The notes beneath the pieces were generated by a model that was not told where the DNA came from, did no database searches, and saw only the letters and a program-made list of their open reading frames with translations. Positions 17,744 to 60,578 of a stretch of DNA of 64,000 nucleotides are shown one piece after another. Origin of the DNA: Octopus sinensis (taxonomy: Eukaryota); NCBI RefSeq assembly GCF_006345805.1, contig NC_043013.1:47120001-47184000 (forward strand). The letters run 5' to 3'. The position numbers and the translations under genes are program-made. Positions within the stretch are counted from its first letter, which is position 1. Each line of letters opens with the position of its first letter.

Positions 17744-18895
17744 GCAAGGGGTCATCAGGATCTTTGTACTTTCTATTTCCAGCAATGGAAGAAAATAGAC
17801 ACCAAGGCTGTGACCAAGGAAGCCGTGCGGTACCAGGAGGAAGGAAGAGGAAAATCAAGAGCTGTGGTGTTTGTATCACAGGGTGCATGGACTAAATGCG
17901 ATCTAATTAACAGAAAACTCACATGGACTGACCTGTGGAGGCTGGAACTTTTTCGCATCTCTTTCCTGCTGCGGGTGGTGTTCGACACACTGCCGACGCC
18001 AAGAAACCTGCACGGAGGGGGTTTGAGGGAAGACCTGTGTAGACTTTGTGGAGAAAGGGGCACTCTGGCACATATCTTGCAGGATGTAGAATAGCAATTT
18101 CTCAAGGCAGATATATATGGCGCCATGATAGGGTGCTTGCAACACTTGCCCACACCCTGGAGCAAGAAAGGCGAAACAAACATCATCATTACGTGAAGGC
18201 AACAGCAGAAATTAAGTTCATGAAAGAGGGAGTGAGACAAGTAAATTTAGCAGAAACAATACATAGCTTACTGCAAAGATCTCAACTACGGTATATGAGA
18301 ATGAACTTCGGGGAGACATTACAGTTTCCCCAGGTTGTTCATACAACCCTGGGGCCAGATATGGTCCTGTGGTCTGAAAATGCCAAGAAAATTATTGAAA
18401 TTGAACAAACAGTCGTGTGGGTAGCGGGGTATGGTGAGGCCCATGAACAGAAGCGTGCCTAATATGAGAGCCTTCTGCAAATTGCAGGGAGAAGGGATGA
18501 CAGGTATGGCTTTTCCCAGTCGAGGTTGGCTGTAGGGGATTCTCTCCTCAGTGGGCATGGGGGATGGCTAAAGCAATTGGAATGAGATATAAGGGGCCTC
18601 TTGTTGGCTTTAGTGTAAGAGAGAATAGTTGAGCTGGAAGCCAGGAGGAGTTGATGAGCAGTGACTTGGCCACCTCTGCTGACCCACTAACGGGAGGGTG
18701 TTACAGTTAAGGGTCGAAAAACCCAATGAACGTTGGATACCGTCTGACGACATCAGTTCCTCTTGGCCAAGGCTCCATTCAAGTGGTTAAGGTCAAACAA
18801 CTGACAAACAAATTTGTGGTACTGAGCAGAATACTTGCTTGAACGATATTTCTGCTTCAGCAACTCAGCGCTGAAATGGAGAATAGGTCTGTTTC
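17744..18895 (+). mobile_element. Hero-clade (RLE, R2-group) non-LTR retrotransposon, 5'-truncated, frameshifted, with 3' UTR
   Basis: QGAWTK, DTLPTPRNLH, CxxC..H..C knuckle, GRYIWRHDRVL, PDMVLWS, PVEVGCRGF motifs across frames. Confidence 0.88.
18665..18771 (+). ncRNA. Permuted hammerhead-like RNA motif, Hero 3' UTR copy 1 (partly degenerate)
   Basis: GACCC..GGGTGT-T-ACAGT..GGGTC-GAAA-AACCC..ACCGT-CTGACGA, enclosed by CTTGGCCA/TGGCCAAG. Confidence 0.6.
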
Positions 18896-20116: not shown

Positions 20117-21054
20117 GGCGAGCTGGCAGAATCGTTAGCATGCCGGGCGAAATGCTTTGCAGTATTTCGTCTGCCGTTACGTTGTGAGTTCAAATTCCGC
20201 CGAGGTCGACTTTGCCTTTTATCCTTTCGGTGTCGATAAATTAAGTACCAGTTACGCACTGGAGTCGATGTAATCGACTTAATACCTATGTTTGTCCTTG
20301 TTTGTCCCCTCTGTGTTTAGCCCTTTGTGGGTAATAACGAAATAGGTATTTCGTCCGCCGTTACGTTGTGAGTTCAAATTCCGCCGAGGTCGACTTTACC
20401 TTTTATCCTTTCGGGGTCGATAAATTAAGTACCAGTTACGCACTGGAGTCGATTTAATCGACTTAATACCTATGTCTCTCCTTGTTTGTCCCCTCTGTGT
20501 TTAGTCCCTTGTGGGTAATAAAGAAATAGGTATTTCGTCCGCCGTTACGTTGTGAGTTCAAATTCCGCCGAGGTCGACCTTGCCTTTCATCCTTTCGGGG
20601 TCGGTAAATTAAGTACCAGTTACGCACTGGGGTCGATGTAATCGACTTAATACCTATGTCTGTCCTTGTTTGTCCCCTCTGTGTTTAGCCCCTTGTGGGT
20701 AATAAAGAAATAGGTATTTCGTCTGCCGTTACGTCGTGAGTTCAAATTCCGCCGAGGTCGACTTTACCTTTCATCCTTTCGGGGTCGATAAATTAAGTAC
20801 CAGTTACGCACTGGAGTCGATGTAATCGACTTAATACCTATGTCTGTCATTGTTTGTCCCCTCTGTGTTTAGTCCCTTGTGGGTAATAAAGAAATGGGTA
20901 TTTCGTCCGCCGAGCTCGACTTTGCCTTTTATCCTTTCGGGGTCGATAAATTAAGTACCAGTTACGCACTGGAGTCGATGTAATCGACTTAATACCTATG
21001 TCTGTCCTTGTTTGTCTCATCTATGTTTAGCCCCTTGTGGGTAATAAAGAAATA
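20117..21054 (+). mobile_element. SINE family B tandem array: one head plus five 184-bp units
   Basis: GTATTTCGTC unit starts at 20162, 20346, 20530, 20714, 20898; fifth unit has a 26-bp deletion. Confidence 0.95.
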
Positions 21055-29330: not shown

Positions 29331-30094
29331 AATCCTTTCTACTAGAGTCACGAGGCCTGAATTTAGTGGGAGGGGACTAGTCGTTTACATCGACCCCAGT
29401 GCGTAACTGGTACTTAATTTATCGACCCCGAAAGGATGAAAGGCAAAGTCGACCTCGATGGAATTTCAACTCAGAACATAAAGACAGACGAAATACCTAT
29501 TTCTTTACTACCCACAAGGGGCTAAATACAGAGAGGACAGACAAGGACAGACAAACGGATTAAATCGATTATATCGACTCCAGTGCGTAACTGGTACTTA
29601 TTTTATCGACCCCGAAAAGATGAAAGGCAAAGTCGACCTCGGCGGAATTTGAACTCAGAACGTAGCGGCAGACAAAATACCTATTTCTTTACTACCCACA
29701 AGGGGCTAAACACAGAAAGGACAAACAAGGACAGACAAACGGATTAAGTCGATTATATCGACTCCAGTGCGTCACTGGTACTTATTTAATCGACCCCGAA
29801 AGGATGAAAGGCAAAGTCGACCTCGGCGGAATTTGAACTCAGAACGTAAAGACAGACGATACCTATTTCTTTACTACCCACAAGGGGCTAAACACAGAAA
29901 GGACAAACAAGGACAGACAAACGGATTAAGTCGATTATATCGACCCCAGTGCGTAACTGGTAGTTATTTAATCGACCCCGAAAGGATGAAAGGCAAAGTC
30001 GACCTCGGCGGAATTTGAACTCAGAATGCAAAGACAGACGAAATACCGCTACGCATTTCACCCGACGTGCCAACGTTTCTGCCAGCTGGATGCC
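29331..30094 (-). mobile_element. SINE family B tandem array: head plus three tail-1 units plus one tail-2 unit
   Basis: Periodicity 184, 184, 182 bp (anchors 29391, 29575, 29759, 29941). Confidence 0.95.
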
Positions 30095-32136: not shown

Positions 32137-34684
32137 CAGTAGTTTTATTTTTATAGCGTGCTTTCACTTCACTACCGAGCGCAGCTCTGTGTGCCTTGGG
32201 TATGTGCTGTGATTTGTTGTGATGCTCTGATGGTTATTGTATGGAAAGTGTTCTGCGTAGGATGTGTGCAGTGCCTAGTAGTGCAATTTTCTGTATGTTA
32301 TATGTGTTTGTAAGTCCTGGTGTTTTTGTTATGTATTTGTCTGAATATTTTTTTATCATGCCTAATGCACCTACTATGATAGGAATTGTTTCTGTTTTTA
32401 GATTCCACATTCTGGTTACCTCTATTTCCAGGTCTTTGTATTTTGAGAGTTTCTCCATTTCTTTTAGAGACACGTTGTCATCTGCCGGTATTGATACATC
32501 AATTAGAAAGCATTTTTTTTCTTCATGATCTCTGACAACTATATCTGGCCTGTTGGCCTTAATTTCTCTATCTGTGTGTATCGGCATATCCCAGAGTATG
32601 GTTGCTTTCTCATTTTCTGTGACCTTTTCTGGTGTGTGCCTATACCATCTTTTTTCTGTTGTTATTCCATAATGTTGGCATAGCTTCCAATGTATGTAGG
32701 TTCCAACTCTGTCATGTCTGTGAATATATTCCTTCTTAGCCAGGACTGGGCAGCTAGAGATAATATGATTTATTGTTTCTTGTCCATCTCCACATATTCT
32801 GCAGTTACTTGTTATATTTCTTTTCATTACATGTTTTTGGTAATTTCTTGTGCTGCAATTAAAAATCCCTCTGTTTCTGCTTTGAGTCCTGAGCTTCTCA
32901 ACCATTGCTGGGATTTTTCTTTGTTTATTTCTTTTGCGTTTAGTTTAGTGCAGTATTTACCATGAAGGGGCTTTTCTTGCCATCGTTTTATCATGGCTCG
33001 TTGCTGTTCTATTTTTAGTTTGGATTTCATTTGTTTTATAGCTTTTGTTGTTTCTTCATCATCTTCTTCTTCTTTGGTTTATTATAGGTGGTATGATTTC
33101 TTGTTTGTATTTGTCAGCTTCCTTAAATACTGAGAACAGTTTTTTGTTTTGCTCGTGTTTTGCTGCTATCTGGATCAGTTCCTTCCTTCTGAAGTAGGTA
33201 TTTTTGCAGTCCTATGGTGGTTATTTTATAGTAGTTTTCCAGCTGTATAAGGCCTCTACCACCTTCTATACGTTTTATATGAAGTCTTTCTATGTCAGAT
33301 TTTGGGTGATGCATCCTAGATCCTGTCATTATTTTTCTTGTTTTCCTATCTATTTTGGTCAGTTCATTTCGTGTCCAGTTAAGGATATTGTAGCTGTAAC
33401 TTATAACTGGGACAGCTAAAGTGTTAATACCTATTATCTTGTTTTTAGCATTGAGCTCGGATTTTAGTATTGATCTAACTCGTCTATATAATTCTTTTTT
33501 TATTTCCTCTTTCATTTGTGTGTGTTGTGTCTTATCTAGTTCATGGATTCCTAAGTATTTGTAAGTTTGGCTTTGGTCTAATTCTTTTATTTCATTGGTT
33601 TTATCTAGTGTGATGTTGCTACTCTTAACTAGTTTTTTCCTCTTTTCATGGTTACTTTGGCGCATTTTTCTAATCCAATTTCATATCTATTTCTTTGGTA
33701 AATCCATGAACTGTCTTTAATAGTGTTTCCAGCTGTTTGTCATTTGCAGCGTATAGTTTTAGGTCATCCATATATGAAAGGTGGCTGATCGTTTTGCCGT
33801 AACATTTATATCCGCATCCAGTTATATTTAGTATATCAGATAGAGGTGACAGTGCCAAGCAGAAAAGGAGTGGAGAGAGCGTGTCCCTGGAATATTCCTC
33901 TTCTAATGGGGATGTCTTTGGTTTTCATGAGTCCCTCTTTTGTTTGGAGGTGTAGGACTGTTTGCCATTTATTCATAGAGTGCTCTATGAATTTTATGAT
34001 TGTTGGTGCTACTTTGTTAATGGCTAGTGTTTCGAGGATCCATGTGTGAGGGATGCTATCAAACGCCTTTTTGTAGTTAATCCAGGCCATACTGAGGCCT
34101 TTCTTCTTTCTGTGGCTGTCTTCAGTTATGGCTTTATTAATCATTAGTTGAACTTTGCAGCCATATGAGCCTTTGCGGCATCCTTTCTGCTCTTCTGGGA
34201 ACAGTTTGTTTTCGTCCAGGTGCTTGTTCAACCTTTGCGATATCACTGCAGTAAATGCTTTGAACATTGTAGGGAGGCAGGTTATTGGTCTGTAGTTTTC
34301 TGGTTTTGCTGTCTCATTTGATTTGGGAATTAAGATGGTTTTCCCCTTCGTAAGCCATCCAGGCATTGTCTCTGGCTCTGCTAGTATGTTGTTAAAGTTT
34401 TCAGCCAGCTTTTTGTGCATTCCTGTTAGATATTTCAACCAGAAGTTGGGGATCTTATCATGCCCAGGTGCCTTCCAGTTGCTTAGTCTTTACAGTGCCT
34501 GAGTGACCTCTTCAGTTGTTATGGGGGTCCAAAGTTGTTCAGATGCTGAGTTTGTTATTTTGATACTCCTTTTTTGTTGTTGTTCGTTCGCCGACCATAT
34601 TTCTCTCCAGAATTCTTCCAATTCTTCTGCCGTTGGTGCTGCAGTGACTTCTATTTTATTTTTGCCAAGTTCTTGGTAGAACTT
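32137..34684 (-). mobile_element. R4/Dong-clade non-LTR retrotransposon, 5'-truncated, RT plus RLE with frameshifts
   Basis: NWKAPG, NYRPITCL, EEQKGC, YKKAFDSI, RGIFQG, YMDDLKLY, CRICG..H..C, RHDRV, NRPDIVV, LIDVSIP; flanked by (TAA)n on both sides, the established Dong-type target. Confidence 0.95.
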
Positions 34685-57710: not shown

Positions 57711-59593
57711 AAGATCAAAGAGAGAAAACTAAAGGTTCTTCTTTACCTGTAATTGGGATATTACCAATTCTGTCACGTCACCGTTTGCACCAATAACTTG
57801 TATCATGTATAACACTAATATAACTTCCATCAGCAGTTTTGAAAGAACCATATTCAAAACATGTACTCCTATAACTGTATGTAATGTAAATATTAAAATC
57901 CCAATTCCTCGATTGTATTTCCAGATTATTTCGTTGGCCGTCTCAGAAACAAGATGTTCTGCAATAGAAAGATTGCATTAATTAAAATTGTCTCTAATTA
58001 ATTATGTGGCTATGTAATGAAGGAAGGAAATTTTGAACGTTGAGGTTTATTAAAATATTCCAAATTAGTTCCAATTAATTATATTGGAATGTCGTAGGAC
58101 CGAATTACTCGTTATTAAGGATGGGGAGAATTCTAGATTAGCTACAATGATTTATGTAGAAAACTCTGGAAATATTTTAAAAAGAATACAATTAATTTTG
58201 TTAGAGGTTGCTTAAATACTGTTAATTTAGAAGAGAGAAAATGAAATTATCATGTGTTTAGGAGACACGAGCACGATAAAATCTGTGATAGTGATATGGA
58301 ATTGCAATCTATTAAAGCATGATACAGTTAAATATGTAAAAGTTTGCCGTCAGTTTCTTGATAGCAAGCAGGAAATGAAGGAAGTTGTGAACTCTTCTAG
58401 ATTATGTACAATTAATTATGTACAAATGTGTTGATAATTTGTAGATTCCATGAATTAAATTATGTTTAAAGGTGTAAATAAGTTTTAAATTGCGTACAAT
58501 TAATTATATAGAAAGATCTCGAAGCGTTCTTGATTCGATAGAGTTAATTAAGCAGCAACATATTCTGTTTTCGTTTAGCTCCATTTAATTATATCAAAGC
58601 AATTGAAAAGTTCTTGCGAGAAAAGAGTTAATTACGTAGGACGATAGTGTGACTATTTCAAGTAGATACAGCTAATTACATAGGAGCTTACTGACATATT
58701 GTACACTGGGTACAGTAGATAATAGTTACATTCAGGTACACGTAATTAGGCCAAAGGTATTTAAAACCTTTACAGTGGGAAATTCAGTTCTTAATTTGTA
58801 GAAACCTTTATAGTTGATGCAAGAAATTAACGGATATATTAAACTATTTTCATTGATTAGATTTTTGTACTGAATATTGATCGATTAGGAAAGCTGGAGT
58901 TTAGGAAAATGGGACTCGATTTTTACTCGGATGTCTCGATAGTAACCTATTATATCTAATCATGTAGATTTGAGATTACGTCCACGGAAACAACTTTTCC
59001 TTTTAACCTGCAACAACCATATATAAATCTCTCTTGACGTGAATATTTATATCAAGTTCCTGTCCTGAAGTAAGTAAGCTGTATACTGAACAGAGTAATT
59101 ACGTAGCAAGCTTCCAGAAAACAATTTATATTAATTAACTACCAAAAATATCATACGGCAGTAAAGGCGTAACACTGAATTATCACTATATATCTTCGAA
59201 ATGCTTGAAGAAATACAGGGGAGACCACTTATATTTACTTGTTTGGAATAGATGAATATATGGAAATTTGTCCATACATTCTGCGAAATTAGACCCACGA
59301 AGGATTATCCTTTAACTAACGGTGAGAATCGAACCTATATGTTTCATTGCTATGTGAGAATTTATCCAGGATATACACACCTCTCCCTCCAACACAAACA
59401 GTGAAGTTAACTGATGACTACTCACTAAATTGTAGATGTGCGTGTATCAAAGTACAAGTTCATTTGCATAGTCCTACAAGTTTGACAATTTGGCAACAAT
59501 TAGTACAGTAGCATTACAATGCATGTTATATAAGTGTGTATGAATGGATACATATGTGCATGTATATAATACATGCACACACAATCATATATT

Positions 59594-59631
<38 letters not shown>

Positions 59632-59654
59632 TGTATATGTATTTATGCATGTAT

Positions 59655-59730
<76 letters not shown>

Positions 59731-59732
59731 AA

Positions 59733-60151
59733 TATTGAGGATAAAATCTTTATAAGAAATTATTAGTAGTTAGCGTGAAAAACCTCGAGAGAGAAAAAAT
59801 CCGTAAATTTTTCCACTTTGAAAATATTTATTTATATTATATAGAGGGTACTACTATTCATAGATACCGCACGCTAGGAGGGACCCTTGCGGTCAAAACT
59901 ATTAAAATAAACAAACTGTACCGAATGCAAAACTTCAAAGCAAGTCATTTAAAAAAAGAATTTAGTTACATATCACCTGTGATTTCGCAATAAATGCAGA
60001 ATATGCATTCTATGCTCATCAGTGCAACAAACTCAAGACATATAAGAAAACTTGCTTTGAAGTTTTGCATTCGGTACAGTTTGTTTATTTTAGTAGTTTT
60101 GACTGCAAGGGTCCCTCCTAGCGTGCGGTATCTATGAATAGTAGTACCCTC

Positions 60152-60162
<11 letters not shown>
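59733..60162 (-). mobile_element. Fold-back mini-element: 113-bp inverted repeats around a hammerhead, plus 100-bp tail, in (TA)n
   Basis: Arms 59833-59945 and 60050-60162 with 2 mismatches; minus-strand AATAAA at 59827-59832. Confidence 0.85.
59958..60034 (-). ncRNA. Intact type I hammerhead ribozyme
   Basis: GAGUUU-GUUGCA-CUGAUGA-GCA..UGC-GAAA-UCA CAGG UGA-UA|UGUAAC-U-AAAUUC; all core positions and three helices present. Confidence 0.85.
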
Positions 60163-60206
<44 letters not shown>

Positions 60207-60224
60207 ACATACATATATATATAT

Positions 60225-60578
60225 GCATTCGAGCTTTGGTGTTGGAGAAGACTTTTACGGATTCCATGGACAGCGAGCCTCACCAATGGAGAAGTTCTTA
60301 ACCAGATCAAGCCGAAACTGTCGCTAGAATCTACGATCACCAAGCATAGATTGGCATATTTTGGTCATATTATGTGGAGAAAATCCCTGGAGAAGGACAT
60401 CATGCTCGGAATGGTCAGTGGCAAGAGAGGAAGAGGCCGACCAAGAACCCGCTGGCTTGACACCATCAAGAGTGATATGAGAATGGACATAGCCAATCTG
60501 AAAGAAGCGGCCCAGGATAGAATTGGCTGGAGGACACTGATCCATTGATGACCGAAAGTCTACTTCGACTGAGCGGAT
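60225..60578 (+). mobile_element. RTE-BovB-like LINE 3' fragment
   Basis: AFELWCWRRLLRIPWTA..LAYFGHIM..SLEKDIMLG..GKRGRGRPRTRWLD..AAQDRIGWR. Confidence 0.92.

Follow-up and report, generated by a model that had tools for sequence, protein, structure and literature searches.

A dependence of animal non-LTR retrozymes on Penelope-like elements (PLEs) is proposed from the co-occurrence of the two, from shared hammerhead ribozymes or from likeness to PLE pseudo-LTRs (pLTRs) (PMC7229834, Cervera and de la Pena, 2020; Li, Clavereau and Pollet, 2026, bioRxiv 10.64898/2026.07.22.740005), and how these retrozymes are mobilised is stated as an open question in the available text of the more recent paper. 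PLEs themselves are characterized by partial tandems, inverted 5'-truncated copies, a tail that often stands at one end only, and a bias towards (TA)n targets; how such tandem, inverted and tailed insertions are made is likewise stated as an open question (Craig et al., PMC8557442). The purified PLE of the anole cuts and extends both target strands and starts at two internal RNA positions, by which the tail is defined; the enzyme's predicted form is a dimer (Frangieh et al., 2024, PMC11167929). Non-autonomous Chlamys elements, for example MRC1, are described as non-coding parasites of PLEs that carry pLTRs and insert head-to-tail (PMC8557442).

The locus described here lies in a stretch of 64,000 nucleotides of Octopus sinensis (the window; contig NC_043013.1). 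It is quite probably a 5'-truncated copy of a retrozyme of ~495 nt with a predicted hammerhead, whose fold-back is likely to have arisen from a Penelope-like enzyme priming two cDNAs on the (TA)n strands at two fixed sites of the RNA. The octopus family is short, young and numerous, and therefore complete insertions are readable over their full length. What they reveal is a retrozyme with ends of the PLE type, and the interest of the family lies mainly in this manner of insertion. As a single locus, the window copy is an ordinary dead copy, and its "caged ribozyme" is not a design. An earlier note on this DNA was right in recognizing a ribozyme retroelement and wrong in taking the hairpin for its working form.

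Structure of the Locus

Table 1. Features of the fold-back copy (window positions; "unit" refers to positions in the repeat unit).
Feature	Position	Strand	Description
Inverted arm	60050..60162	+	Unit ~283-395, to ~404 at 60171, where it merges into TA; outer end is site A
Direct arm	59726..60050	-	Unit 178 to ~500, 5'-truncated; outer end is site B
Type I hammerhead (predicted)	59958..60034	-	Core, stems and predicted cut
Direct-arm part duplicated by inverted arm	59833..59945	-	Two covarying hairpins just before site A
Site A	59824..59843	-	Unit ~385-404, TA-like motif; one of the family's two fixed 3' ends
"Tail"	59726..59823	-	About 96 nt, site A to site B
(TA)n target microsatellite, left	59587..59727	.	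Left flank of the copy
(TA)n target microsatellite, right	60152..60224	.	Right flank of the copy

The arms are as the earlier note had drawn them, 113 bp with exactly two mismatches (59891 and 59902) around 104 nt, and can be extended to 122 nt at 97% into AT-rich sequence (Table 1). In the sense of the unit, one of them is a C-to-T and the other a G-to-A, and each is confined to a single arm. For the entire fold-back the predicted folding energy is -231 kcal/mol, well outside what chance would give (z = -27, 100 shuffles), and the 104-nt spacer alone is of unremarkable stability (z = -1.46). The (TA)n reported on both flanks is present, and the claimed lack of coding capacity stands, the only long ORF of the region being a TTG frame of 125 aa whose course takes in the TA repeat. 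The AATAAA that had been read in the tail exists (59832-59827), but is probably no poly(A) signal, because it sits within site A, which is AT-rich, and is replaced by AATGAA in 25 of the 99 pieces extending beyond A.

Measured against the reference unit, a natural stretch of 494 nt from locus L004, the copy consists of unit 404-283 in inverted orientation followed by unit 178 to ~500, with 177 nt of the unit missing. The direct arm joins the inverted arm with an overlap of 1 nt at 60050, a junction that was found at no second locus among the ~150 examined. The covarying hairpins of the duplicated part lie at about 59894-59882 and 59868-59847. Site A, which is internal within the direct arm, includes a run of nine columns that is invariant in 26/26 aligned copies, and the tail folds back on the arm region, unit 451-457 pairing with 352-358.

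Other repeats occupy the window. Directly after the right TA tract, the plus strand at 60227-60575 retains the 3' part of a LINE ORF, readable in a single frame, which looks like an RTE-type C-terminus. Two arrays of a 184-bp (and 158-bp) unit, at 20162-21053 and 29379-30047, lie in opposite orientations with 93-95% matches and adjoin long microsatellites; the same repeat flanks many of the loci examined. On the minus strand, 32234-34438 contains three ORF fragments (200, 180, and 223 aa), presumably left by a disrupted non-LTR RT element that ended in a zinc-knuckle and nuclease-like part at its C-terminus, and a similar fragment lies at 18046-18462.

The Predicted Hammerhead Ribozyme

The minus strand is predicted to fold as a complete type I hammerhead, in agreement with the earlier reading: all core positions are present, and stems I, II, and III are all able to form. 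Stem I pairs 60034-60023 with 59970-59958 and includes an internal loop, the core comprises CUGAUGA (60022-60016) and GAAA (59986-59983) with a long stem II, and stem III has 4 bp and a CAGG loop; there is also an AUA triplet. The cut that had been placed at 59971|59970 agrees with the predicted N17 at 59971. A core scan of the whole window gives two matches, and by inspection stems I and III are present only at this one. The active fold is unfavored in the nearest-neighbor model: whether the arms are included or not, the MFE is lower by 2.6 kcal/mol, and stem III has a predicted probability of 0.01, because CUGAU pairs there with AUCAC/AG. Rfam hammerhead models give no match at E<=10 on the region, nor at gathering on a trimer locus, and these Rfam scans return low-complexity miRNA-type matches only. 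A match of this kind is a library match and no defining biochemical feature of a type I hammerhead; the long stem II is a likely cause of its absence.

The core (CUGANGA / GAAA / UH) is complete in the window copy, intact in 78/87 hammerhead copies, and varies between subfamilies only at N7. Variants common to at least four loci occur in none of 12 core columns, N7 being a position that does vary, and in 9 of the 77 columns of the whole motif, N7 included. In a selection of 28 sequences that spans both subfamilies, pairing is kept in 95.3% of cells (slid controls, 16-45%), and three stem II pairs are changed on both sides; the shuffle controls for covariation ignore relatedness, and by two of the five measures the real sequences were no better than shuffles. 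Stem III hardly varies and is therefore uninformative for covariation. Judged by this pattern of substitution, the hammerhead is under selection and is conserved like a working ribozyme. In the available text on Xenopus retrozymes, 8/9 of those tested were without cleavage in vitro (bioRxiv 10.64898/2026.07.22.740005).

A large young subfamily (L081, L101-L108, L196-L216) carries A for G at the base of stem II. The resulting A-C mismatch adjoins the core, yet this subfamily has spread widely.

The Repeat Family and Its Unit

The idea of a young, non-autonomous, non-coding ribozyme retroelement is borne out, the family being multi-copy and having Penelope-type insertion features. As a check of copy number, which the earlier note had proposed, the 104-bp spacer finds at least 40 matches in the genome, all of the 40 that were scored among 1156 first-look candidates being 96-100% identical. 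A pattern for the core and its neighbors has 547 exact matches in the genome (reversed control, 0). The family has spread to hundreds of TA-repeat sites in the genome.

The unit is non-coding, 494-500 nt long (about 495), arranged head-to-tail and circularly permuted, with a GC content of about 33% and a tRNA in 0/4 loci. In the main sample the longest arrays have about 2 units, with dimers at L016, L079, and L099 and some loci with two or more hammerheads; at L329, three core matches 499 bp apart mark a trimer-plus of about 3.1 units. Upstream of the unit the unit itself is met again, never a shared unique sequence or ORF, and no RT plus GIY-YIG ORF is present in the unit or joined to it at the examined loci. 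The family thus combines consecutive hammerhead-bearing units of a few hundred bp, a lack of coding capacity and a GC content under 50%, and at the level of sequence its unit fits the definition of an animal non-LTR retrozyme, the window copy being one member of the family.

An older subfamily, 73-79% identical, has kept the unit length and both 3' ends unchanged, and subfamilies at this distance keep the catalytic core with compensatory stem changes. In the 3' domain before and between the two ends, 5/25 pairs are changed on both sides and 95.8% are paired (26 chosen sequences), with the same limits of the shuffle controls as for the hammerhead. The circular unit has a predicted fold at z = -3.1, with 0/40 shuffles as low.

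Words of the unit occur in sequencing runs of four organisms, and therefore the family likely spans related species; none of the runs listed is on record as RNA. Contigs from three presumed RNA runs and a fourth run, taken from two of these organisms, match the family, for the most part with 90-99% identity. They are uninformative on circles, strand and ends, and no listed piece spans the window locus. At L333 (G000:C2:90302300-90305900), L014, and L332, whole insertions are tandemly duplicated together with their flank, L333 repeating an entire fold-back; these duplicates point to local duplication after insertion.

Ends, Targets, and Fold-Backs

The 3' ends in 86 distinct loci fall at two sites about 96 nt apart, A (unit ~404) and B (~500). 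Simple copies use them about equally, 22 of the 41 ending at A and 19 at B. A (TA)4 lies within 30 bp of 81/86 3' ends and in 132/1720 background windows, and target-site duplications are unreadable within (TA)n. The 5' ends are variable and cluster near predicted stems, e.g., at 299-343. The family displays the features of Penelope-type insertion: copies are truncated at the 5' end, partial tandems and inverted 5' copies occur, a tail may be present, and (TA)n sites are favored.

An inverted 5' piece is present in 45 loci. Of the 45 fold-back junctions, 23 show an overlap of 1-10 nt, 2 are blunt and 20 contain additional bases, with hot spots at internal complementary stretches (unit ~355 and ~455). 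Hidden short inverted remnants in simple copies number 2/56, both of them B adjoining an A end, which is too few to be of use. Most loci were picked for containing a hammerhead, and arm lengths are biased by this choice.

The outer ends of the fold-backs follow a near-strict rule. Where both are intact, 56/58 fold-backs pair one A with one B end, 2 are A/A, and 0 are B/B. This tally comprises a first set with 40/41 A/B (4 more fold-backs had a damaged end), 25 new loci taken in order along contig 1 with 10/10 (2 repeats of earlier loci dropped), the older subfamily with 3/3 (3 damaged and the complex L225 set aside), and ten loci chosen for two hammerheads with 3/4 (1 damaged). Against an even split, the first two sets give p = 2e-14. 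The exceptions are the A/A copies L103 and L336, besides the complex locus L225, which has an internal B end and a TA tract and, counted as A/A, makes the tally 56/59. The one-sided tail is known qualitatively for PLEs (PMC8557442). No description of a quantified pairing rule or of this repeat family was found in the literature covered; the supplements of PMC7229834 and bioRxiv 10.64898/2026.07.22.740005 could list a cephalopod retrozyme. As it stands, the one-A-one-B rule predicts exact RT start sites.

The Search for a Helper Element

The genome holds young intact (TA)n-targeting PLEs with RT plus GIY-YIG ORFs (781 and 775 aa), one young family of which we take to be Neptune-like from its Zn-finger linker. 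A (TA)n-targeting Naiad is also present, and a search with 21 bases characteristic of the Naiad published for Octopus gives 204 occurrences. The unit shows no significant likeness to 100 PLE loci (nhmmer), to 30 Naiad loci or to three PLE 3' ends compared against shuffles, 150 of 5029 GIY-YIG candidates having been scored. The autonomous PLE sharing the tail, for which the earlier note had proposed to look, thus did not appear, as no shared sequence was found in the 130 PLE and Naiad loci sampled; with no detectable shared sequence in any sampled PLE, no helper was found. Two candidates were rejected: a likeness by eye of the unit to the Naiad 3' end is matched by 81/300 shuffles, and at L092 a copy adjoining a PLE fragment is no joined element, since a TA tract separates the two.

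The youngest autonomous family, represented by L169:1142-5979 (G000:C1:207473000-207481500), L170-L173, and L177-L179 at 98-99% identity, encodes a 781-aa RT plus GIY-YIG ORF preceded by an overlapping 479-aa ORF without a Pfam match. It ends in (TA)n and has an occasional 35-nt tail. One end site was found in 30/30 sampled loci and no inverted 3' end within 1.5 kb, a weak test, as the query stopped just before that site and the elements are long.

At about 5880-5925 of L169, and in its relatives (L143, L145, L146, L150, L158-L167), a minimal hammerhead-like motif is predicted near the PLE 3' end. In this motif U3-A8 replaces C3-G8, stem II is conserved, loop III is palindromic and stem I is weak. 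Other PLE families have similar minimal motifs with different palindromic loops.

Template and Proposed Mechanism

The inverted arms differ by 3.1% within a locus and by 7.8% between loci (lower within in 42/43 pairs), and the parts of tandems by 3.1% within and 7.6% between (24/26 pairs), with rare variants in common. On this comparison both arms of a locus are shown to come from one template sequence, and gene conversion could add to the within-locus similarity. The hammerhead cut is spanned by 91/176 pieces, and one terminus falls within 253-262, in a sample partly biased to spanning copies; run-off at the ribozyme cut was rejected on this single terminus. The template was therefore circular or uncut. 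cDNA copies stop at variable points, often near strong stems.

In the mechanism proposed here, transcripts of multimer loci would self-cleave to unit length and then be closed into circles by ligation, a course known from the retrozymes of coral, mussel and axolotl. A PLE RT/GIY-YIG protein would bind the conserved structured 3' domain (unit ~320-500) and cut both (TA)n strands. Each strand would prime one cDNA on a single RNA, circular or multimeric, and their starts would differ: site A for one cDNA and, 96 nt away in the 3' direction, site B for the other. The two cDNA ends would be joined by microhomology or end-joining. Survival of both cDNAs would produce a fold-back with one A and one B end, whose loop is the sequence that only the longer cDNA copied (in the window copy unit 178-282, which would merely happen to hold the hammerhead). 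Loss of one cDNA would leave a simple copy ending at A or B. The fold-back "cage" is a likely by-product of insertion.

A more specific form of this mechanism is put forward tentatively. A circular ribozyme RNA of viroid size may be inserted by a dimeric Penelope-like enzyme whose two subunits, each on its own target strand, begin at A and at B, respectively, of a single RNA. If true, such strictly asymmetric two-site priming would unite in one mechanism the PLE tail, its restriction to one end and the inverted repeats, and retrozymes could recruit a PLE through RNA structure without detectable shared sequence.

The same family and the same PLE-type insertion could also be served by an uncut linear multimer as template, with A and B primed on the same or successive units and the hammerhead acting elsewhere in the cycle or not at all. 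Such an RNA and a circle account equally well for pieces that run across the cut site, the dimer and trimer loci are possible sources, and in the anole PLE hammerhead mutants still inserted, unprocessed RNA being the main substrate (PMC11167929). It is nevertheless the somewhat unlikely choice: a linear route only shortens arrays, yet near-identical partial tandems recur in every subfamily, the hammerhead core is conserved across 25% divergence, and related retrozymes accumulate mainly as circles (PMC7229834). Self-copying of a single cDNA, which would be primed at B and snap back, with resolution at the TA-like site A either through the endonuclease or through pairing with the target, would account for the resemblance of A to the target, for the B arm of the window copy containing the entire A arm and for the junction hot spots at complementary stretches; Craig et al. 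ascribe the PLE tail to endonuclease resolution (PMC8557442). Neither arm contains the other in 12/55 fold-backs, however, 7 of which are simple two-piece copies and some of the rest complex or incompletely mapped. In L003, L020, L058, L077, L098, L108, and L199 each arm holds sequence absent from the other, and these were therefore not made by self-copying of one cDNA; simple copies, moreover, end at A as often as at B, and snap-back is improbable.

Two further readings concern what the unit is, rather than how it is copied. It might be the detached pLTR of an autonomous PLE outside the sample, the copies being 3' fragments of that element, as Xenopus retrozymes match PLE pLTRs (bioRxiv 10.64898/2026.07.22.740005) and the share of scored GIY-YIG candidates leaves room for such a PLE. 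This is very unlikely given that the upstream sequence is always the unit again, that PLE ORF fragments near copies are separate (L092 being one example), and that the sampled PLEs carry minimal hammerhead-like motifs and not the canonical one of the unit. The earlier note had seen a fold-back mini-element, a long dsRNA opened in its loop by the ribozyme and a possible ADAR or Dicer substrate. A minus-strand transcript of the window locus, if made, would form the 113-bp duplex and leave the hammerhead free to fold, and in a hammerhead-enriched sample the ribozyme lies wholly in the loop at 24/45 fold-back loci; at the others it is masked by an arm (10) or absent or incomplete (11), so that a caged ribozyme is not supported as the functional form of the family. 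The inverted arm is also copy-specific, with 41/86 loci lacking one and arm lengths, junctions and breakpoints varying widely among the rest. Single-locus variants among copies show no clear A-to-G excess (37/11770, or 3.1 per 1000, against 42/16595, or 2.5 per 1000, for T-to-C), and therefore no ADAR mark on the templates; the two arm mismatches of the window copy, C-to-T and G-to-A, also count against the hairpin reading. As a family-level design the fixed hairpin is contradicted, and it is scarcely tenable.

Comparison With Known Systems

The octopus family resembles the animal non-LTR retrozymes in its non-coding, low-GC, head-to-tail unit with one canonical type I hammerhead each, in its range from monomers to short multimers, in its self-paired circular fold, here predicted, and in the presence of PLEs with minimal hammerheads in the same genome (PMC7229834; bioRxiv 10.64898/2026.07.22.740005). 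Its unit of 494-500 nt exceeds the 150-450 bp given by Cervera and de la Pena (2020, PMC7229834) and lies within the 51-972 bp of the later survey (bioRxiv 10.64898/2026.07.22.740005). The fixed double 3' ends, the tail, the inverted 5' pieces and the (TA)n targeting, on the other hand, are not described in the available text of these two papers, and "inverted," "microsatellite," and "octopus" have 0 occurrences in the main text of PMC7229834.

These additional features are shared with EN+ PLEs, namely the Neptune and Naiad clades (PMC8557442) and the anole Poseidon (Frangieh et al., 2024, PMC11167929), as far as their available descriptions go: 5' truncation, partial tandems, an inverted 5' copy, a tail that may stand at one end, RT starts at two internal positions (here inferred), and AT-rich or (TA)n targets. 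The octopus unit differs in having no ORF and in a hammerhead that is canonical, not minimal, and its tail of 96 nt compares with 30-40 in the available accounts of published PLEs. Non-coding, head-to-tail elements of the Chlamys MRC1 type are similar in these two respects; as described, Chlamys elements generally share 3' sequence with an autonomous family and are mostly without hammerheads, whereas no such partner was found for the octopus family (PMC8557442).

With the PLE families sampled in its own genome, the octopus family was found to have no sequence likeness. In L1 twin priming, both target strands prime cDNA, and the 5' inversion is joined by microhomology. The proposed model would be similar, in that both strands prime and the junction is formed by microhomology. 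It differs in that two fixed, structure-defined starts would give overlapping arms and so an inverted duplication, where L1 yields an inversion with deletion.
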